From a virus (Duplodnaviria > Heunggongvirae > Uroviricota > Caudoviricetes): 9,788 nucleotides of DNA. The stretch spans positions 1-9,788 of IMG/VR virus record IMGVR_UViG_2703718846_000007, one strand, 5' to 3'. The notes under the pieces were generated by a model, which was not told where the DNA came from, did not search any database, and saw only the letters and a list, made by a program, of their open reading frames with translations. Position 1 is the stretch's first letter; the number at the start of each line of letters is the position of its first letter. The position numbers were made by a program, and so were the translations under genes. This document shows, one piece after another, positions 1 through 9,788 of this stretch.

Positions 1-1110
1 TTATCCCCTGAACCCTGGTGGAATTTCGGTGTCCGGTTCAGAAATGTGATTCACACAACGCTGGTTGTTCGTGCCGCTTACCGGGAGCAACCAGGGGTTT
101 TCAAAATTCCGGTCCGGTCCAAAAAACGTCGTCGCTCGCTGAACAAATTCCGTTCCCGCTTTCCCGGTCGCCGCCAGGTATCTCGCATAACGCCTCACAC
201 CATCCAGCATGGTCTCTGGTGGCACCCCCTCGCGCAATCTGGCCTTCCAGGCACTGAATGCGGATTTCTTCGGGTTTGCCCCGGCACGCAACGGGTATTC
301 CCGCCAGACCTGTTCGAACACATCCGGATAATCCACTCGTCCCACAGGCCGCCCGGTGTTTTCCGGGACTACCCGATCGGCTTCCCGCTGAATGGCGGAA
401 TCGACTTCAGGCTGCTGCAGTTGGTGTGATTGCTCCGCCCCTGCGGTCATCGCCTGCTGCACAGCGCCCGAATCGGCTTTCAGCGCATACGCCGAATCGG
501 CTTCCGGTGTCGTGCCTGCTGGCTGACCAGAATTTACGGTCTGAACATCCCCTGCCTGGTTCGTGGTGTTTTTTTCGCCATGAACCATAGTGTTTTTGTC
601 CTGTTCCTGTTCTTTCTCCTGCTCCTGTTCTTGGCTTCGAAGCCCCTTAAAAGCCCCTTCAAAGCCCCTTACCGAATTTCGGCTATTATTCCGCCTCACA
701 TCAAGATGGAAATCCGTTTTATATCTGTCGTAAAACGCTGACAGAAAAGCGTTTTCAGGTAATGATGCATACTCATTCCTGACACCTGCACAACGGTTAT
801 CGCCTGGCTTCAACGTTTCCCCAACCTGCCAGGCTGCCATTTCATGGACCCAGACCATCTCGGCATCATGGTCATAGCTACAAAAACCAGCTTCAACAGC
901 CCTTTTAAGCCCCTTTGAAGCCCCTTCCAGACCAAGCCCGGTTTCATGAGCAAGGTATAAAACTGGCAGGTAATACAAACCCAGCATATTTGCGTGAGGG
1001 GATGTCATCAGGTAAAAAGCAACAACTTGCGCTTCTGCACCCGCCTTTCTAAGTTCTCTCCCCGTTTCTCCCAGCCAGAATCGCGGAGAAACTTTTGCGT
1101 AATCACGCAT
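1..1110 (-). CDS. Phage replication initiation / replisome organiser protein (O-like), with a low-complexity QEQEQEKEQEQ linker between N- and C-terminal domains
   Basis: ORF-track frame 1..1221 with TAA stop at 1-3. I place the start at ATG 1108-1110 because GAGG lies 5 nt upstream, whereas ATG 1219-1221 has no Shine-Dalgarno. The N-terminus MRDYAKVSPRFWLGETG... resembles DUF1376-type initiators and the C-terminus YPDVFEQVWREYP...FVQRATTFF resembles the DnaT-like domain of phage replication proteins, both from memory. Confidence 0.8.
   Translation of the reverse strand: MRDYAKVSPRFWLGETGRELRKAGAEAQVVAFYLMTSPHANMLGLYYLPVLYLAHETGLGLEGASKGLKRAVEAGFCSYDHDAEMVWVHEMAAWQVGETLKPGDNRCAGVRNEYASLPENAFLSAFYDRYKTDFHLDVRRNNSRNSVRGFEGAFKGLRSQEQEQEKEQEQDKNTMVHGEKNTTNQAGDVQTVNSGQPAGTTPEADSAYALKADSGAVQQAMTAGAEQSHQLQQPEVDSAIQREADRVVPENTGRPVGRVDYPDVFEQVWREYPLRAGANPKKSAFSAWKARLREGVPPETMLDGVRRYARYLAATGKAGTEFVQRATTFFGPDRNFENPWLLPVSGTNNQRCVNHISEPDTEIPPGFRG
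640..670. repeat. Iteron-like direct repeats, cluster 1: three tandem AAGCCCCTT copies at 11-bp spacing
   Basis: Copies at 640-648, 651-659 and 662-670 (plus-strand reading), lying inside the initiator CDS. The three copies fall in three different codon phases of that CDS. Confidence 0.5.
897..926. repeat. Iteron-like direct repeats, cluster 2: two AAGCCCCTT copies plus one degenerate copy
   Basis: Exact copies at 907-915 and 918-926 and a degenerate copy (AGCCCTTTT) at 897-905, spaced 10-11 bp, inside the same CDS about 260 bp from cluster 1. Confidence 0.45.
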
Positions 1111-1327
1111 GGCTACCTCATCTGGTGCCGAACCTTCCTCCGGATATAATCTGTGGTTCCCAATCAACAGAACCAGAGGAGGTTCGACATGTATTTTTTG
1201 AAAAGCCTTTATCAGGCTCATGTATTAAATGTTGCAGCAACAAACCGCTGGTGTAACAGCCCCGAAATGCTCCCGGATTACAGAGCCTGGCTGCGCGCCG
1301 AAACATACCTTCGTCTCGACATATTGA

Positions 1328-1837
1328 TTAGCGAACTTCAAAAAGAGACTGCATCCATTCATAACCTTCAGGGTATCGACGCTGTTCGCATTCTGGTATC
1401 GCGCCATAGTGCTCTCTCAATAATTGAAGTGCGTCATCTCTCTTTTTCTGAACTGATTTTCTTGCTTCAACCAGCTCTGGAATCAGCGAATATCCCACCG
1501 AAAGTGATCCAATACCCACCTCATGTTGACGAGCAGTTACAAGATGTGCCATACAACCAGCGTGCTGGATTGACTCCCTGCTCAGAGGCTGAATGGGATC
1601 ACTCTCTGCTGAAGAAATACCAAGATTTGTATAATCCTCAATAAGCCCGGCACACGCTTCTGCATCAGCCAGCTTTATTCTGGTTTCCTTGCGCTGTTCT
1701 CTGGCTGACAAACGCCAGAGCAGCGCATTAGCTTTATGTATCAACCACTCTGCCAGCTCCACATCAGATAAACCGCCACGCCAGATGTGCGGACTGTTTT
1801 CGTAAACGCTCAGTGTCAATTTTTTGTCATTACTCAT
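1328..1837 (-). CDS. Hypothetical protein (169 aa) between the CII-like and initiator genes
   Basis: ORF-track frame 1328..1888, trimmed to ATG 1835-1837, which lies 13 nt after the upstream gene's stop. It is co-directional with the replication operon, and my hand count gives 58% purine at codon position 1 versus 48% for the overlapping plus-strand ORF. No family recognised. Confidence 0.5.
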   Translation of the reverse strand: MSNDKKLTLSVYENSPHIWRGGLSDVELAEWLIHKANALLWRLSAREQRKETRIKLADAEACAGLIEDYTNLGISSAESDPIQPLSRESIQHAGCMAHLVTARQHEVGIGSLSVGYSLIPELVEARKSVQKKRDDALQLLREHYGAIPECEQRRYPEGYEWMQSLFEVR

Positions 1838-1850
1838 ATTTATTACCCAA

Positions 1851-2276
1851 TTAATGCACAGCCAGAGTGTTTCCTGCCGGGCCACCACGATTCATCTGAT
1901 CGAACAGAACGATCGCTGATGCAACGAAATCATCAATATCTTTCACCAGCCGTTCCTTCGTCTCTACCAACTCCCGAAAATAAGCGGAACTGTGGCTGCG
2001 CATTCGGGCCACCAGCGGAGGCGGCATCGCTTTTTCGATCGCTGGTAACAACGCCTGAATTTTTTTAACCGCATCAGGAGTGTCTTTCTCCACCCAGCGG
2101 AAAATTTTCTGGGTGTTACGGCCCAGGGCTTCCGGATGGCTGTCGTCGTACAATTCCGGGAACGTCATACCGAGTTCGAAATACGCTTTGGTAATTTTCG
2201 CAGCCGGAACTTTTTCACCGTTCAGATGTGCCCAGGCATTCATCGCCATGCGGATGTGTTCATGCTTGATTTTCAT
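1851..2276 (-). CDS. YdaT-family protein (CII-like regulator, historically annotated as toxin YdaT)
   Basis: 141-aa ORF immediately downstream of the Cro-like gene, with an ATGA start/stop overlap at 2273-2276. Size, position and the MKIKHEH... N-terminus fit the YdaS/YdaT arrangement of Rac-like prophages (recollection, not searched). Confidence 0.7.
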   Translation of the reverse strand: MKIKHEHIRMAMNAWAHLNGEKVPAAKITKAYFELGMTFPELYDDSHPEALGRNTQKIFRWVEKDTPDAVKKIQALLPAIEKAMPPPLVARMRSHSSAYFRELVETKERLVKDIDDFVASAIVLFDQMNRGGPAGNTLAVH

Positions 2277-2500
2277 GAATCACTATTCCTCTCGCCATGA
2301 GTGGTATCCTTCTTTTTGTAAAGTTCTGGGTTCAAAGATAACTTCCCCTTGGAGTATGCTGCGGCTTCCGCAGCCCTCCCCTTTGGAACTATTTCACCAG
2401 GTCGCCTACGCCACATGTAAATAGCTTCACGGGTTATCCCATAAAAATCGGCAACCCTCTGAACAGAACCAAAAAACTGGACAAGTTCATCAACTCGCAT
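2273..2500 (-). CDS. Cro-like HTH transcriptional regulator (YdaS family)
   Basis: 75-aa ORF with a strong Shine-Dalgarno (AAGGAGGG) 4 nt upstream of ATG 2498-2500. It is divergent from the repressor gene and carries an HTH-like segment VQRVADFYGITREAIYMW. Confidence 0.8.
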   Translation of the reverse strand: MRVDELVQFFGSVQRVADFYGITREAIYMWRRRPGEIVPKGRAAEAAAYSKGKLSLNPELYKKKDTTHGERNSDS

Positions 2501-2596
2501 TTAGCCCTCCTTCAATCTAATTATTTTTAGACTAAATGATAATTTTTTTTAGGTCAATGCAATCTAAAATAATTTATATTCAATTCACGGGAGAAA
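2501..2596. promoter_or_regulatory. Divergent immunity control region (pR-like and pRM-like promoters with operators)
   Basis: 96-bp AT-rich intergenic region between divergent cro-like and cI-like genes. Minus-strand TTGACC (plus 2552-2557), 17-bp spacer, TAGTCT (plus 2529-2534). Repeated TTTTAG / CTAAAA half-sites, e.g. TTTTAGG-N11-ATCTAAAA at 2545-2568. Confidence 0.6.
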
Positions 2597-3244
2597 ATGA
2601 TGGAAAGCCTTGGCATCAGGCTAAAGAGACTCAGAAAAGATAAGGGACTAACCCAAGTAGAACTGGGTAAGCTTTCAGGTGTAACTGGAGTTACTGTAGG
2701 GTACTGGGAGAAGGATCTAAACGAACCTGGTAGTAAAGCTCTAAGTAAATTAGCCCAGGCATTAGGAACTACTGAGTCCTACCTCCTGTATGGAGTATCG
2801 TCTCCTGAATCATCTTTTATGCAGATCAATCCAGGCTCTCAGATCCCCTATTTTTCTTGGGGTGACGCGATTTCTTTCCTAATTTTAGAAGGAGAGAAAG
2901 CTATGGGAAATGTCGATAGGATCACCACATTCTTTGATGTCGAGGAAGGTGATTTTGCCGTTTCAATGCCTGATGACACTATGCATAACCCAACTGGGTC
3001 GCCGAGCATCCCAGTTGGTGCCACAGTGATCCTAAGGCCTAGAGAAAGTTATAAAAATGGTAGCATCGTCGCTGTAATAGTTCCGGATCCGCTTACAAAT
3101 GAACCATCTATGACTATAAAAAAATTAGTTATTGATGGAAAGCTTGCGTACTTAAGCCCTCTTAATCCACGCTATCAATCATCTTTGCTTACACCAGAGT
3201 GTAAAATTGTTGCCGTAGCAAAAGGCGTACAGTTCAACTTATAG
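2597..3244 (+). CDS. cI: CI-like phage repressor with N-terminal HTH and C-terminal S24 (LexA-like) autopeptidase domain
   Basis: 215-aa ORF with GGGAG upstream. N-terminal HTH LTQVELGKLSGVTGVTVGYWE; C-terminal motifs AVSMPDD (catalytic Ser), TIKKLV (catalytic Lys) and LSPLNPRY align with lambda CI GNSM, TFKKLI and LQPLNPQY. Confidence 0.9.
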   Translation: MMESLGIRLKRLRKDKGLTQVELGKLSGVTGVTVGYWEKDLNEPGSKALSKLAQALGTTESYLLYGVSSPESSFMQINPGSQIPYFSWGDAISFLILEGEKAMGNVDRITTFFDVEEGDFAVSMPDDTMHNPTGSPSIPVGATVILRPRESYKNGSIVAVIVPDPLTNEPSMTIKKLVIDGKLAYLSPLNPRYQSSLLTPECKIVAVAKGVQFNL

Positions 3245-3266
3245 CCCCGTCAAACCCTTTAATCTG

Positions 3267-3292
3267 AGGTCGGCAATGCCGACCTTTTTTTT
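3267..3292 (+). terminator. Rho-independent terminator downstream of the repressor gene
   Basis: Hairpin GGTCGGC-AAT-GCCGACC at 3268-3284 followed by eight T at 3285-3292, 23 nt after the cI stop. Confidence 0.75.
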
Positions 3293-3312
3293 AAATTATT
3301 TTAGATTTTCGC

Positions 3313-3341
3313 TTGACTAAAAAACTAAATACTTTTAGATT
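3313..3341 (+). promoter_or_regulatory. pL-like sigma70 promoter for the early-left operon
   Basis: TTGACT (3313-3318), 17-bp spacer, TAGATT (3336-3341). Flanked by two copies of TTTTAGATTT (3299-3308 and 3333-3342), the same half-site motif seen in the cI/cro intergenic region. Confidence 0.5.
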
Positions 3342-3515
3342 TATCACATACCCAACCCGCCCCACAGAATGCAGGGCAATACTTCGAGTTACCAGGCAGT
3401 GGTCAGGGGTTAAGTAGCCAGCCCGAGGCGTAAGAACATGACGGCAGGGTTCAACTTTAACTATGCAGCAGGTTTTTGTTCCGCCACCCCGGCGTTAAAG
3501 GGAAATGAGGTCAGC

Positions 3516-3668
3516 ATGGATACTATCGATCTTGGCAACAACGAATCTCTGGTATACGGCGTGTTTCCAAACCAGGACGGTACGTTCACCGCGATGACGT
3601 ATACCAAAAGCAAAACGTTTAAAACCGAAGCTGGCGCGCGTCGCTGGTTAGCCAGAAATACTGACTGA
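3516..3668 (+). CDS. Small early protein (50 aa), YdaF-like / DUF1391-like
   Basis: ATG 3516 with GAGG 5 nt upstream; TGA stop at 3666-3668. The ORF-track frame extends upstream to 3438 but that start is less well supported. Family assignment is from memory only. Confidence 0.55.
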   Translation: MDTIDLGNNESLVYGVFPNQDGTFTAMTYTKSKTFKTEAGARRWLARNTD

Positions 3669-3679
3669 TGAGGTTAACG

Positions 3680-4315
3680 ATGGAATTTAAAGATTTACCG
3701 CTATCAATCCAGGAGATTGCAGCACACACACTACGTCAACGTCTGAACGAAGCTATGGCTGAATCTGCAACGAAAGAAACCATTGATAACATGGCTCGTA
3801 ATGTGCACGATGCGTTTACCGGATTGTATTTCTGTGCGTCTGTAAATAAACACGACCCAGAGAGTGTGGCAAAGAAAATTGCAGAAACGACAGTGCAAAA
3901 CATCAATACGAAACCAACCGAAGACGAAATTGACCAGCCTGCCAGTGAACAAAAGAAAGAAAAATCGCCATATGCGGGGAACATGTTTGTTTATGACAAA
4001 CTTATCCGAATTCGTGGCGAAATTCCGACTGAATACCTGGCAAAAATTCACCAGGCATTACTTAAAAATCTGGAAACGGAAGTATTTGATGGCAACACCA
4101 ACGGCTCCTTCGTGGTGTCAGCCCTCACAAAAGAGTGGGATACAGATAATCGCCGGAATGTTGCTACATGGTTATTCAGCAACAAAGCTGCTGCCCTGGA
4201 AGCTGCGGCCTGTATTTGCGACCTGCTAAGGACAGACCGCAAATACAACCTGGATGTGTATAGCTATATTTATGCTGAACACTATCCACTCTGGATTGAC
4301 TGGTTTAAAGGGTAA
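3680..4315 (+). CDS. Hypothetical early protein (211 aa), function unknown
   Basis: ORF-track frame 3668..4315. ATG 3680 has GAGG 6 nt upstream; the alternative ATG 3668 overlaps the preceding stop (TGATG). Soluble, non-repetitive protein; no motif recognised. Confidence 0.7.
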   Translation: MEFKDLPLSIQEIAAHTLRQRLNEAMAESATKETIDNMARNVHDAFTGLYFCASVNKHDPESVAKKIAETTVQNINTKPTEDEIDQPASEQKKEKSPYAGNMFVYDKLIRIRGEIPTEYLAKIHQALLKNLETEVFDGNTNGSFVVSALTKEWDTDNRRNVATWLFSNKAAALEAAACICDLLRTDRKYNLDVYSYIYAEHYPLWIDWFKG

Positions 4316-4412
4316 CACCTGCGGGACCGAGCCGACCAGCACCACGATTATTTTATCCTCCATTAAGGGGTGAATTAAAAATGGAGACCAACACGCTGCT
4401 ACGTGTGGTCGT

Positions 4413-4452
4413 GCGCCGGACACGGATAACCTTCCGGCATGCTCTTTAACAA
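4413..4452 (+). promoter_or_regulatory. Candidate processive-antitermination site: hairpin followed by an rrn-type boxA (TGCTCTTTAACAA)
   Basis: Exact 13-mer TGCTCTTTAACAA at 4440-4452 on the plus strand, preceded by hairpin GCCGGA-N12-TCCGGC at 4415-4438. Orientation matches pL-directed transcription. Confidence 0.4.
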
Positions 4453-4477
4453 TCTGGATATCCACAACAGCAATAAC

Positions 4478-4996
4478 CTACGGATTGCTGCTCAATGCTC
4501 TACCTATCTCTTCTTCAGATGGGGGCGGTATATAGTCATCATTGCGTTCAAATTTAAAGCGCGAATCACATTTCAGGCATTTAGAAATATGGAACTTATC
4601 ATGCTCACCAATTTCAACAGGTTGAAGTATTGCTATTACACCATGCTGATAGCAATTGGGACAGGCATAGTGAAAACATGTGTCTTCTTCGTCGAGGCTG
4701 TTCCTGAAAGCATAGACAAAATGCCCAAAACCAGTTTTGTGTATCGTATAGCATTCAAGTTTTCGATTACGCTCGTCAATTTCATGACATTTTTGCTTAA
4801 GCAAGAGTATTTCCTCGTACTGAAGCGCGAGCGTTTTCGCTAGCTCTGCGTTCTGTATTTGTAAGTCTGCCAGTTGGCGACGCATTTCGTAGACAGCCTT
4901 TTCACGTTCAGATTGGCTTTTTGCATCAAGTATTACCTGTAATAAATCAATCGAGACTTTAATTGCCGTTATTGATGAAGTTATTCCAGATAGCAT
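4478..4996 (-). CDS. Hypothetical coiled-coil plus zinc-ribbon protein (172 aa) on an antisense-oriented AT-rich insert
   Basis: ORF-track frame 4478..5113, trimmed to ATG 4994-4996 because a perfect TATAAT lies about 32 nt upstream. N-terminal heptad-like region RRQLADLQIQNAELAKTLALQYEEILLLKQK; C-terminal CPNC...CLKC cysteine pairs. GC is visibly lower than in the flanks. Confidence 0.65.
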   Translation of the reverse strand: MLSGITSSITAIKVSIDLLQVILDAKSQSEREKAVYEMRRQLADLQIQNAELAKTLALQYEEILLLKQKCHEIDERNRKLECYTIHKTGFGHFVYAFRNSLDEEDTCFHYACPNCYQHGVIAILQPVEIGEHDKFHISKCLKCDSRFKFERNDDYIPPPSEEEIGRALSSNP

Positions 4997-5007
4997 TCTT
5001 AACTCTC

Positions 5008-5060
5008 TGTGTTGTTGGGGTATCCGGATTATACAAATTTCTTGTTGTTGGGGAACAACA
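5008..5060 (-). promoter_or_regulatory. Promoter and candidate operators for the antisense gene
   Basis: Minus-strand TATAAT (plus 5028-5033). Two copies of TGTTGTTGGGG (plus 5010-5020 and 5043-5053); the second forms a perfect palindrome TGTTGTT-GGGG-AACAACA (5043-5060) over the -35 region. Confidence 0.5.
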
Positions 5061-5313
5061 GGAACCACCTCGCCTGATGTGGTTAAAAGCAGGCACACAA
5101 CACGAAAGCGCACGGCGAAGGTTTCTTTTCCTTAGAAGGCTTGTCGTTAGATTTCTTCGACCGTGCGCTTCCGGTTGTGGCAATCCGCGAAATGGCGCGG
5201 CGGTAAGTATGGCGGGGTTATCCTTACCCCCACTGGTAGCACCGGGTTGTCAGGTTGACCATACGCTTAAGTGACAACCCCGCTACAACACTCCATGTTG
5301 AGTATTGACCTTT

Positions 5314-6016: not shown

Positions 6017-8482
6017 ATGAGCACTGATAAAGAAGAATTTGCATTATATTGTGAAGCAAAAAATGACAAAGTCAGAAAACGCCTTGGAATTAAAGGTGGT
6101 TTTTACTGGACTACAGCAAAAAAATTATCTGTTGCCATCTCCCGCTGCATTACCGCAATGGATGACAACGATTATGATGAAGACGACTTTAAAAAACCCG
6201 TCCGCGTCCATTTACCCGTTGTGAATGACCTTCCACCTGAAGGCGTGTTTGATACTGAATTCTGTAACCGTTACGAAAAAGGCGGGGAAGATGGCATCAC
6301 AATGGTATTTATCGCGCCCTCACCCTCTGCGCAGGACAAACCAGCCAACACTGACAATACCAACGTCAACGGCGAAGACATGACTGAGATTGAGGAGAAC
6401 ATGCTCCTGCCGGTTTCAGGTCAGATTCTGCCTGTTCGATGGCTGGCACAGCACGGCAGCGAAAAACCGATCACACACGTTTCGCGGGACGAACTGCGCG
6501 CATTACATAACGCACAGGATGAAAAACTTCCCGCCGTTACCGCGCTGGCTATCTCAAATAAAGCAGCGCAACTCGAACCGCTGGAGATTCGCGATCTCCA
6601 CAAACTGGTGCGAGACACTGACAAAGTTTTCCCCGCCCCCGTAAATTCGGACCTGGGACTGATAACTTCTTTTATCGAAGCATACCTGGACGCCGACTAC
6701 ACCGATCGCGGTCTGCTGACAAAAGAGTGGATGAAAGGAAATCGTGTTTCGCGTATCACCCGTACGGCTTCCGGTGCAAATGCCGGTGGCGGGAACAAAA
6801 CCGATCGCAATCCGAATTTAGTACACACCTTCGATACGCTGGATGTGGAGACTGCAGCAGCCACACTTCCGATGGATTTTAATATTTATGAAATTCCGGG
6901 TAGCGTTTATCGTCGCGCAAAAGAAATCGTCCTGAAAAGAGAAAGTCCGTTCAAAGAATGGTCCGCAGCACTTCGCGCAACCCCGGGTATTCTGGATTAT
7001 TCCCGCGCCGCTATTTTTGCACTTATCCGGAGCGCTCACCCTGAGTTTTATCACTACCCGGGACGCCTTCAGGGGTATATCAACGCCCACTTAACGGAGA
7101 CTGATCACGAGAACCCCAGCAAGGAAACTCTCACTGCTGCACGACATACACCGGAAAAAGATATCCTGGAAGAAGTTAACCGCGAACTGGCTGCTGAACG
7201 CGAAACAGAAGAAGAAAAAAATAATGAGGAAAAATCACAACCGTCTGACGCAATGGCAGATGAACAGGCAACGGCCGAAGCAATGGAGCCGGATACAACT
7301 GAACATCACCAGGACACGCAATCGCTGGATACTCAGGAACAGGTAGATCCAGTTAAACAGGTAAAAGTTACCGCTGACGAAGTAAACAAAATTATGCAGG
7401 CAGCCAATATCAACCAGCCTGATGCCGACAAAATACTGGCAGTCCATCGCGGTGAGTTCGTTGACGGAATTAGCGACCCGAATGATCCGAAATGGGTTAA
7501 GGGGATTGAAACCCGCGATTCTGTGAACCAGAACCTGCCCGAATCGGAACAAAACGACCAGAAAGCGGAACAGAACAGCCCAAATACGTTACAAAACGAG
7601 CCAGAAACGAAACAGCCTGAACCAGAAGAGCAACAAGAACCGGAAAAAGTCTGCACCGCCTGCGGTCAGAGCGGTGGCGGCAACTGCCCTGATTGTGGCG
7701 CGGTGATGGGCGACGCAACATACCAGGAAACATTCGATGAAGAGAATCAGGCTGAAACTCAGGAAAATGATCCGGAGGAAATGGAAGGCGCTGAACATCC
7801 GAACAATGAGAATGCTGGTAACGATCAGCATCACACCAGCGATAGTAAAACTGGCGAGGCGGCAGATCCCTTAATTACGGTGAACAGTCATCACATTATC
7901 ACATCCACCAGCAGGGTATGGCACCATCTGATGATCGACCTTGAAACGATGGGAATTAACAGCAATGCGCCCATCGTAGTTATTGCTGCAGTGTTTTTCG
8001 ATCCGCAGACCGGGGAAATCGGACCGATATTTTATGTTGTCATCAGTCTGGTTGACGCAATGGACAAAGGTGCTACTCCCGATGGTGACGTAATCGAATG
8101 GTGGCTGGCGCAGTCCAGCGAGGCCAGATCTGCAATATTGGTAAATCAAATTCCGTTAGATGATGCACTATTGCAATTGCGGGAATTTATCGACGAAAAC
8201 TCCGGTGAATTTTTTGTTCGGGTCTGGGGAAATGGAGCCAGCTTCGACAACGTGATTTTACGCCGTTCATATGAACGGCAGGGTATCCCCTGCCCGTGGC
8301 GTTACTGCAACGATCGCGATGTGCGCACAATCGTTGATCTGGGAAAAGCCATAGACTTCGATGCCAGAACAGCTATTCCGTTCGAAGGCGTACGCCATAA
8401 TGCACTGGATGATGCCCGCCACCAGGCAAAACAAGTTTCAGCTATCTGGCAAAAACTGATCCCGAGTCAGGTTGATTTTTAA
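6017..8482 (+). CDS. Large prophage exonuclease (821 aa): RecE/exodeoxyribonuclease VIII-like N-terminal region, acidic low-complexity linker, CxxC-x9-CxxC zinc ribbon, C-terminal DEDDh-type 3'-5' exonuclease domain
   Basis: ATG 6017 with GAGG 7 nt upstream. C-terminal about 196 aa (nt 7892-8479) carry DEDDh motifs MIDLET, GNGASFD and HNALDD. Zinc ribbon CTACGQSGGGNCPDCG near nt 7651-7700. N-terminal segments (NTNVNGEDMTEIEENMLLP..., DYTDRGLLTKEWMKGNRVS...) resemble enterobacterial exonuclease VIII proteins as I recall them. Confidence 0.85.
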   Translation: MSTDKEEFALYCEAKNDKVRKRLGIKGGFYWTTAKKLSVAISRCITAMDDNDYDEDDFKKPVRVHLPVVNDLPPEGVFDTEFCNRYEKGGEDGITMVFIAPSPSAQDKPANTDNTNVNGEDMTEIEENMLLPVSGQILPVRWLAQHGSEKPITHVSRDELRALHNAQDEKLPAVTALAISNKAAQLEPLEIRDLHKLVRDTDKVFPAPVNSDLGLITSFIEAYLDADYTDRGLLTKEWMKGNRVSRITRTASGANAGGGNKTDRNPNLVHTFDTLDVETAAATLPMDFNIYEIPGSVYRRAKEIVLKRESPFKEWSAALRATPGILDYSRAAIFALIRSAHPEFYHYPGRLQGYINAHLTETDHENPSKETLTAARHTPEKDILEEVNRELAAERETEEEKNNEEKSQPSDAMADEQATAEAMEPDTTEHHQDTQSLDTQEQVDPVKQVKVTADEVNKIMQAANINQPDADKILAVHRGEFVDGISDPNDPKWVKGIETRDSVNQNLPESEQNDQKAEQNSPNTLQNEPETKQPEPEEQQEPEKVCTACGQSGGGNCPDCGAVMGDATYQETFDEENQAETQENDPEEMEGAEHPNNENAGNDQHHTSDSKTGEAADPLITVNSHHIITSTSRVWHHLMIDLETMGINSNAPIVVIAAVFFDPQTGEIGPIFYVVISLVDAMDKGATPDGDVIEWWLAQSSEARSAILVNQIPLDDALLQLREFIDENSGEFFVRVWGNGASFDNVILRRSYERQGIPCPWRYCNDRDVRTIVDLGKAIDFDARTAIPFEGVRHNALDDARHQAKQVSAIWQKLIPSQVDF

Positions 8483-8548: not shown

Positions 8549-8800
8549 ATGTACGAATTAACTCTATCGCCAGCAGAGATTCAAGAGATCACGAGATACG
8601 AGCGATACACAAGACAGCAACACCAGTTAAGGCTGCACGGAATTCCATTTGTAACCGGACCTAAAAATGAACCAATAGTTCTTCGCAAGGACGTTCCGCT
8701 AGGGCTGACATCGATACCGGATGCATCTGAACTGGTTTCTGCCGAACCTGATTTTGAGGCACTAAATAATGGGAAGACCAAGAATAAACAAAAAAGATAA
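8549..8800 (+). CDS. Putative excisionase / recombination directionality factor
   Basis: 83-aa ORF immediately upstream of int, overlapping it by 32 nt, as lambda xis overlaps int. No sequence similarity to lambda Xis recognised, so the call is positional. Confidence 0.45.
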   Translation: MYELTLSPAEIQEITRYERYTRQQHQLRLHGIPFVTGPKNEPIVLRKDVPLGLTSIPDASELVSAEPDFEALNNGKTKNKQKR

Positions 8801-9788
8801 TGTACTGCCACCACGGGTTAGATCGAATGGTTACAGTTACGTATGGAAACCCAAAGGAAGCACGAGAACGATAAGGCTCGGAAGGGTGCGGGAAACCAGC
8901 GTGGCTAAAGTCTGGCAAAATTATGAACTGGAAAAGGCAAAACTCCACGACATAATGACCGTCGCTAAATTATGGCACATGTTTATGGACTCCCCTGCAT
9001 TTACAGAATTGGCACCCCGAACTCAAAAAGATTATCGACAACATCAAAGGGCGTTGCTGGCGGTATTCGGAAAAGTGCTTGCTGATAATGTAAAAATTGA
9101 GCAGGTAAGAATTTTCATGGATAAACGGGGGCTTGAGAGCAAGACCCAGGCAAATCATGAACTGGCAAGTCTGAGTCGCGTATATGGATGGGGGTATGAG
9201 CGTGGGTATGTGAAAAATAATCCATGCAAAGGAGTCAGAAAATTCACGCTTAAAGCCCGTACTGTTTACATCACCGATGAACAGTATGCTGCGATATATG
9301 CGGAAGCAATTCCACAGTTACGTATTGCAATGGAGATATCCTATCTTTGTGCGGCAAGGCTCGGTGATGTACTCGAGCTGAAATGGCAGGATATTATGGA
9401 TAAAGGGATTTACATTGAGCAAAACAAGACCGGCACTAAACAAATCAAGGAATGGTCTCCGCGATTACGCACAGTGATCCAATTAGCCCGAAATGTATCT
9501 TCCGGCACATGCGAGTATGTGATCAACACAACCAAAGGCGGGAAGGTCATAGCTAAAACGCTGAACAACTGGTGGAATCAGGCTAAACGTGCAGCCGAGC
9601 AAAAAGCCGACGTTCCGTTTGGGTGCAACTTCCATGACATAAAAGCCAAAGGGATTTCAGATTACGAAGGCAGCAGCCGCGACAAACAAATTTTCAGTGG
9701 GCACAAAACAGAAAATCAGGTGTTGATTTATGATCGCAAAACAAAAATCACGCCAACACTGGATCTACCTCTTGTGGTCAGTAAGTAA
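8769..9788 (+). CDS. int: Tyrosine recombinase, lambda-family phage integrase
   Basis: 339-aa ORF with GAGG 9 nt upstream and TAA stop at 9786-9788. The catalytic region aligns to lambda Int: RLGDVLELKW (Arg-I), YIEQNKTGTK (Lys), FHDIK (His), GHK (His) and LIYDRK (Tyr). The N-terminus is basic like the arm-binding domain. Confidence 0.9.
   Translation: MGRPRINKKDNVLPPRVRSNGYSYVWKPKGSTRTIRLGRVRETSVAKVWQNYELEKAKLHDIMTVAKLWHMFMDSPAFTELAPRTQKDYRQHQRALLAVFGKVLADNVKIEQVRIFMDKRGLESKTQANHELASLSRVYGWGYERGYVKNNPCKGVRKFTLKARTVYITDEQYAAIYAEAIPQLRIAMEISYLCAARLGDVLELKWQDIMDKGIYIEQNKTGTKQIKEWSPRLRTVIQLARNVSSGTCEYVINTTKGGKVIAKTLNNWWNQAKRAAEQKADVPFGCNFHDIKAKGISDYEGSSRDKQIFSGHKTENQVLIYDRKTKITPTLDLPLVVSK

Follow-up and report, generated by a model that had tools for sequence, protein, structure and literature searches.

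A serT-directed lambdoid prophage integrase with lysine at the Arg-II position belongs, by sequence comparison, to a large clade that conserves it

The open reading frame that closes the window (the whole 9,788-nucleotide stretch of viral DNA analysed here, IMG/VR record IMGVR_UViG_2703718846_000007) very probably encodes the working integrase of an Escherichia coli lambdoid prophage of the O157 Sp4/CP-933M type, one that recombines attP with serT and for which lysine, rather than the second catalytic arginine (Arg-II), is the natural residue at position 292. As judged from alignments of its homologues, Lys at Arg-II is a conserved trait of a large clade, neither a defect nor a novelty. The integrase itself is known and abundant among E. 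coli prophages, and a natural Lys at Arg-II has already been acknowledged and is compatible with activity. The features on which the argument draws are collected in Table 1.

Table 1. Positions of the integrase, its catalytic residues and neighbouring genes in the window.
Feature	Positions	Strand	Details
cro-like gene	2273-2500	minus	divergent from the cI-like gene
cI-like gene	2597-3244	plus	HTH and S24-peptidase-like C-terminus, by eye
Exonuclease gene	6017-8482	+	821 aa; Exonuc_VIII N-terminal region (PF06630) and Rv2179c-like 3'-5' exoribonuclease domain (PF16473)
xis-like gene	8549..8800	+	83 aa; DUF4224 (PF13986, E = 1e-9); PHROG 1266 'excisionase' (E = 1.4e-19)
int	8769..9788	+	339 aa, ATG start; lambda-Int-like tyrosine integrase, Sp4/CP-933M type, serT-specific
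Box I, C194-A-A-R197	9348..9359	+	R197 = Arg-I, codon 9357-9359; MAFFT
Lys220	9426..9428	+	beta-hairpin catalytic Lys (lambda K235); phmmer, MAFFT
Box II, FHDIK	9630..9644	+	counterpart of lambda FHELR; H289 = His-I, codon 9633-9635
Lys292	9642..9644	+	codon AAA, at the Arg-II position (lambda R311); phmmer and MAFFT
His312	9702..9704	+	His-II (lambda H333); phmmer, MAFFT
Tyr321	9729..9731	+	nucleophile (lambda Y342); MAFFT

The int protein scores 34.8 bits against Pfam PF00589 over residues 168-323, passing the curated threshold (cut-off 27.1), and PHROG integrase families match the ORF. When all PDB sequences were searched with phmmer, the sole match was lambda integrase (E = 1.6e-16, int residues 1-318), which pairs int from its residue 1 with the N-domain of lambda Int and so covers the arm-binding domain. 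The AlphaFold2 (AF2) model, which has a mean pLDDT of 79 and is poor at residues 300-339 (pLDDT below 50), forms three short strands and a helix at residues 17-59, the arm-binding domain. Its best PDB match is full-length lambda Int (1z1b), with further fold matches to Tn1549 Int, XerA/XerD, IntI and Cre. On its sequence and predicted fold, int is a three-domain, lambda-Int-like (heterobivalent) tyrosine recombinase. The IntBPP-1 subgroup of Smyshlyaev et al. 2021 was rejected as its home: DUF3596 (PF12167), the trait of that subgroup, has no match in int at E <= 0.01. Distant relatives of int that lack His-I (phage Alize, for example, which reads FRDIR) do resemble what is described for IntBPP-1.

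This integrase is also common. The exact protein is already annotated in E. coli, in 129 contigs, as 'tyrosine-type recombinase/integrase'; the 90% cluster that holds it has 1765 members; and a near-full-length xis-int segment is found in 738 of 5426 complete E. coli genomes. As the first-pass annotation of this DNA had remarked, the gene ends at the very end of the window, where its TAA stop is the final triplet.

The catalytic residues fall where lambda Int has them. R197, K220, H289, H312 and Y321 align with lambda R212, K235, H308, H333 and Y342, and Tyr321 lies nine residues past His-II, the same distance as in lambda. The first-pass annotation had listed this same set (Arg-I, Lys, both His and the Tyr nucleophile) and had paired lambda FHELR with FHDIK, which puts Lys at Arg-II. 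That pairing stands. The phmmer alignment sets C286-N-F-H-D-I-K292 against lambda F-H308-E-L-R311 without a gap in the vicinity, MAFFT agrees, and in both alignments it is Lys292 that fills the column of the Arg of the HxxR motif. The motif had thus been read correctly; its coordinates, given as about nt 9628-9642, were 2 nt low. It had also been foreseen that a proper alignment might place an Arg at Arg-II, and this is not what the alignments give. The column is unambiguous because the nearest Arg-type relatives read HD[IL]RAK and this clade HD[IL]KAK, a comparison that also disposes of the misalignment that the annotation had offered as one explanation. Its other explanation, a natural Arg-II variant, is borne out by profile, multiple and fold-level comparisons, in which the Lys marks a large conserved clade.

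Arg-II is described as nearly invariant in tyrosine recombinases, and a small number of recombinases are described with a conserved Lys at the position (PMC4381057). Because the conserved Lys is thus accepted as a rare natural alternative, Lys292 is no bar to membership of the PF00589 superfamily. A literature search for the catalytic motif strings of the Lys variant found no relevant papers. The subgroup name 'IntKX', considered as a label for the Lys variant, was set aside; it denotes simple recombinases of gammaproteobacterial ICEs.

Whether close homologues share HDIK had been marked as a point to check, and they do: HD[ILV]K occurs in 117 of the 120 best homologues of int, which are 55-96% identical and come from Escherichia, Citrobacter, Klebsiella, Salmonella, Cronobacter, Dickeya, Pectobacterium and others. 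At greater distance, an HMMER search of 1.84 billion cluster representatives (50%-identity clusters) gave 4671 matches to int. We tallied the Arg-II position in the 128 near-full-length representatives among the best 150 of these 4671 matches. Lys is present in 91 of the 128, with the consensus HD[IL]KAKG[IV]SD (the K group), and Arg in 32, which read HD[IL]RAK[AS].. in a register identical to that of the Lys type (the R group). Nearest neighbours never differed in K/R state, and in a rough NJ tree the K and R groups are not split by one branch (47 + 42 K; 5 R outside the main R group).

The codons point the same way. Lys292 is encoded by AAA in the window, in phage Evi and in E. coli prophages, and by AAG in ST64B, ZF40 and Stenotrophomonas phage BUCT709. 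Both Lys codons are in use, by lineage; therefore selection acts on the amino acid. These comparisons indicate that Lys292 is neither chance nor sequencing error, and that it is a fixed, selected feature of the large clade HD[IL]KAKG[IV]SD.

Box I differs together with box II. Arg-II-bearing relatives and lambda have TGxR as box I, whereas the Lys292 clade has CAAR. No other position follows the K/R state as closely as that of Cys194, which replaces the Thr of TGxR and is found in 90% of the K group versus 0% of the R group; Gly295, Gly301 and Lys306 also co-occur with Lys292. As far as the alignments go, the combination of Lys292 with the box I change from TGxR to CAAR is a small new detail. 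The coupling of box I and box II may be active-site co-adaptation or may be mere shared ancestry. A bolder proposal, possible but in our view rather doubtful, is that integrases with Lys for Arg-II are a large, old, functional lineage whose active site was remodelled as a unit (HxxR to HxxKxKG together with TGxR to CAAR). If that were true, Arg-II would be dispensable once its surroundings co-adapt; the lineage would be a natural system for dissecting the role of Arg-II (transition-state charge, tyrosine positioning, cleavage/religation balance); and annotation rules that require RHRY would be misflagging a common class of prophage integrases as inactive.

The attachment site lies just beyond the window, as the first-pass annotation had supposed. 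We located it in contig LOOR01000034.1 (E. coli, GCA_001575625.1), which matches the final 4020 nt of the window without a difference and extends further. The att core occupies nucleotides 142-206 past the window end in this contig. The sequence that begins 142 nt after the int stop, CGGTCTTGAAAACCGGCGACCCGAAAGGGTTCCAGAGTTCGAATCTCTGCGCTTCCGCCAAATAA, covers the tRNA-Ser(UGA) gene serT from its anticodon stem through its 3' end and five bases more. Past this 3' fragment come host sequence and then yccA, tusE, yccX and rlmI; Stx phages have been reported to insert at the yccA/serT locus (PMC8065619). In a related locus ARAGORN found no tRNA adjoining int, since nothing but the 3' part of serT occurs at that spot. 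The intact serT is at the far end of Sp4. When the two junctions of Sp4 are aligned with attP of phage Evi, whose integrase is 97.6% identical to that of the window, they show a common core of ~65 nt.

The flanking sequence had also been singled out for a search for direct repeats, and besides the serT core it contains a copy of TTGGTATA. All five copies in the 7-kb Evi locus are inside attP (0.15 expected), which spans positions 4018-4330 of that locus (LR597642.1). One copy is on the int side; the far side has three direct copies and one overlapping inverted copy. LOOR01000034.1 has the int-side copy shortly after the window end; in this locus positions 4021-4226 are the first 206 nt past the window. 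Their placement makes it likely that the TTGGTATA repeats are arm-type sites, and such predicted sites stand on both sides of the core in Evi attP, the layout of a heterobivalent recombinase. Just after the tRNA 3' end (Evi locus 4226-4262) the phage carries a hairpin and T-run, AAGGGGTTACCAAATGGTAGCCCCTTTGCTTTTTT, that resembles the host serT terminator, AAGGGGTTAGCTAAATGCTAACCCCTTTTTCTTTT; therefore the rebuilt serT would still have, after integration, a terminator-like element, one provided by the phage. In the Evi record the integrase is annotated as 'Mobile element protein' from locus position 3133, with the loss of its first 44 codons. The full int ORF of Evi starts at 3001 (3001-4020) and aligns end to end with the window integrase.

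Immediately upstream, the putative xis noted in the first pass does overlap int by 32 nt (8769-8800), and its DUF4224 and PHROG excisionase matches (Table 1) predict for it the function of an adjacent recombination directionality factor. The protein is 85% identical to Sakai ECs_1056. The xis-int gene order is shared with ST64B and phage BUCT709: a DUF4224 gene is directly upstream of the K-type integrases of Sp4, Evi and BUCT709, and ST64B has a gene annotated as excisionase at the position upstream of int. The Xis proteins of Sp4 and Sp14 have been judged to be without DNA-binding motifs and probably non-functional (PMC2669165). The position of the DUF4224 gene suggests that it is the clade's own excision factor.

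An exonuclease gene is upstream of xis-int and a lambdoid immunity and replication region lies beyond; this layout identifies the window as the early-left arm of a lambdoid prophage. The two domains of the 821-aa exonuclease are joined by a long acidic, low-complexity middle with a CxxC...CxxC stretch, and homologues vary in length from 773 to 821 aa. Positions 1-5200 are a mosaic lambdoid early region that holds several small ORFs and, on the minus strand, a replication-protein gene which the left edge of the window cuts short. Among complete E. coli genomes, that of strain C5 alone matches over more than 80% of the window, at 96.6% identity.

Are integrases of this type active? Asadulghani et al. 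found Sp4 and Sp14 as excised circles, though only after mitomycin C and regional amplification, and concluded that the integrases alone appear capable of excision (PMC2669165). In those experiments a trans-acting integrase may have been at work. The Sakai prophages Sp6 and Sp10, which lysogenise K-12, were considered as further K-type examples and rejected: Sp6 reads FHEQR and Sp10 is Rac-type. Their integrases are thus Arg-type, and the direct evidence for lysogenisation in that paper is therefore not applicable to the Lys type. Excision of ST64B has been quantified by attP qPCR, and chromosomal IntA, which is reported to be 50.2% identical to the ST64B integrase and to reintegrate ST64B, is reportedly needed for efficient reintegration (PMC12455584). 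Given this need for IntA, ST64B's own integrase may be inefficient. Moreover, K-type integrases are encoded by viruses that were recovered in phage form, namely ZF40 (from an induced lysogen), Evi and Stenotrophomonas phage BUCT709. In the literature we found no purified, assayed member of the exact Lys-type clade; at its level of identity to the ST64B integrase, Salmonella IntA may be Lys-type too, and would then be the first such member.

A 2026 paper describes two Pseudomonas integrases with Lys for Arg-II: Pal_Y-Int_1 was efficient, with integration in 18.7% of plasmid-receiving cells of Pseudomonas putida, and Pal_Y-Int_2 gave no integration (PMC12884075). The asnB att block of Pal_Y-Int_1 had no matches in viral contigs, and the 34 Pseudomonas/Pantoea genome loci that contain it had no integrase nearby, so these loci appear to be empty attB sites. 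The first-pass annotation had asked whether homologues with this motif are already known to be active, and the answer is largely yes: Sp4, Sp14 and ST64B excise, and Pal_Y-Int_1, which may lie outside the clade, is active. The activity of these motif-bearing homologues removes the novelty of the Lys, not the observation.

We propose that the integrase recombines attP of the phage and the 3' part of serT, a tRNA-Ser gene upstream of yccA, with TTGGTATA arm-type repeats flanking the core and the overlapping DUF4224 gene as the likely excision factor. By established tyrosine-recombinase chemistry, Tyr321 would attack the scissile phosphate, which Arg197 and Lys292 would hold, while Lys220, His289 and His312 would complete the active site; the DUF4224 protein would tilt the reaction towards excision. 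We infer the catalytic role of Lys292: it presumably gives a positive charge and one hydrogen bond to the phosphate. Lys for Arg at the equivalent position leaves Flp (R308K) and vaccinia topoisomerase IB (R223K) partly active, which fits a workable Lys.

Lys292 could be a disabling mutation, and int the decaying integrase of a cryptic prophage. The near-invariance of Arg-II (PMC4381057) speaks for this, many O157 prophages are defective (PMC2669165), and AAA is one base from AGA. We nevertheless give the idea hardly any credence. The ORF is intact and full length; the Lys is kept, in both codons, in homologues of 55-96% identity and in dozens of 50%-identity clusters; and K-type integrases are found in inducible or free phages and in excising prophages. 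Fainter still is the chance that the alignment misleads, the true Arg-II being a nearby Arg and the Lys a neighbouring position. With an identity to lambda Int of only 22-27% such a slip is conceivable, but the F-H-[DE]-[IL]-[KR] block is gap-free in both phmmer and MAFFT, in relatives of 30-35% identity HDIRAK falls exactly in register with HDIKAK, and int has no Arg between residues 273 and 302 to take the part.

It is also very unlikely that Lys292 is not the functional equivalent of Arg-II and that another Arg of the clade, R232 or R145 for example, reaches the active site instead. There is a precedent in CTnDOT IntDOT, in which a relocated catalytic Arg replaces the missing Arg-I (PMC8138268), and both candidates favour the K group: position 232 is Arg in 84% of it versus 23% of the R group, and position 145 in 81% versus 32%. 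However, neither is invariant, whereas Lys292 is invariant in the K group, as a bystander would have no need to be. Furthermore, the K and R groups are phylogenetically separate, so the differences at R232 and R145 may be plain lineage markers.

If Lys292 is, as we hold, the natural residue of a working integrase, the mechanistic gain is modest: that Lys can replace Arg-II in nature is already accepted by the field. What remains of value concerns annotation practice and the option of studying by mutation how box I and box II are coupled. Lys-type integrases lack the textbook RHRY, so a motif-based pipeline or a manual curator might mistake them for inactive enzymes. For the annotation of prophages in STEC it is useful to know that the clade is functional and directed to serT or serU.

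Among known systems the closest is Sakai Sp4 (CP-933M in EDL933). Its integrase, ECs_1055, is 96% identical to that of the window over 339 aa and has the same FHDIKAKGISDYE motif; its exonuclease-xis-int order and its site between the serT fragment and yccA also match the window type, which in the identical contig is inserted at the 3' part of serT by yccA. The two differ by 14 amino acids in int, and elsewhere the window is mosaic, made up of other lambdoid modules. The integrases of Sakai Sp14 (CP-933U; 55% identical) and of Salmonella phage ST64B (Sb28; 48-49% identical) both have the FHDLKAKGISDYEG motif and a like xis-int arrangement, and both elements excise in vivo. Sp14 adjoins serU (tRNA-Ser CGA), whereas the window type adjoins serT.

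Lambda integrase (PDB 1z1b, 1z1g, 1p7d, 1ae9) has the same three domains as int, the N-terminal one being an arm-binding domain with MGRxR, and its Arg-I, Lys, His-I, His-II and Tyr come in the same sequence and at the same intervals. Lambda also has an overlapping upstream xis and arm-type repeats round the core, as in the window type. The two proteins are only 22-27% identical, however; int has Lys for R311 and CAAR where lambda has TGQR, and its neighbour is a putative DUF4224 excision factor rather than lambda Xis. The target of int is a tRNA gene and that of lambda is attB, which sits between gal and bio.

Pal_Y-Int_1 resembles int in its natural Lys at Arg-II but targets asnB, not a tRNA gene (PMC12884075). 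CTnDOT IntDOT and the IntDes subgroup are, like int, natural exceptions to the RKHRH pentad (PMC8138268). Their departures affect Arg-I or His-I, whereas that of int affects Arg-II; and whereas IntDOT is compensated by a displaced Arg, int keeps a basic residue at the position itself.
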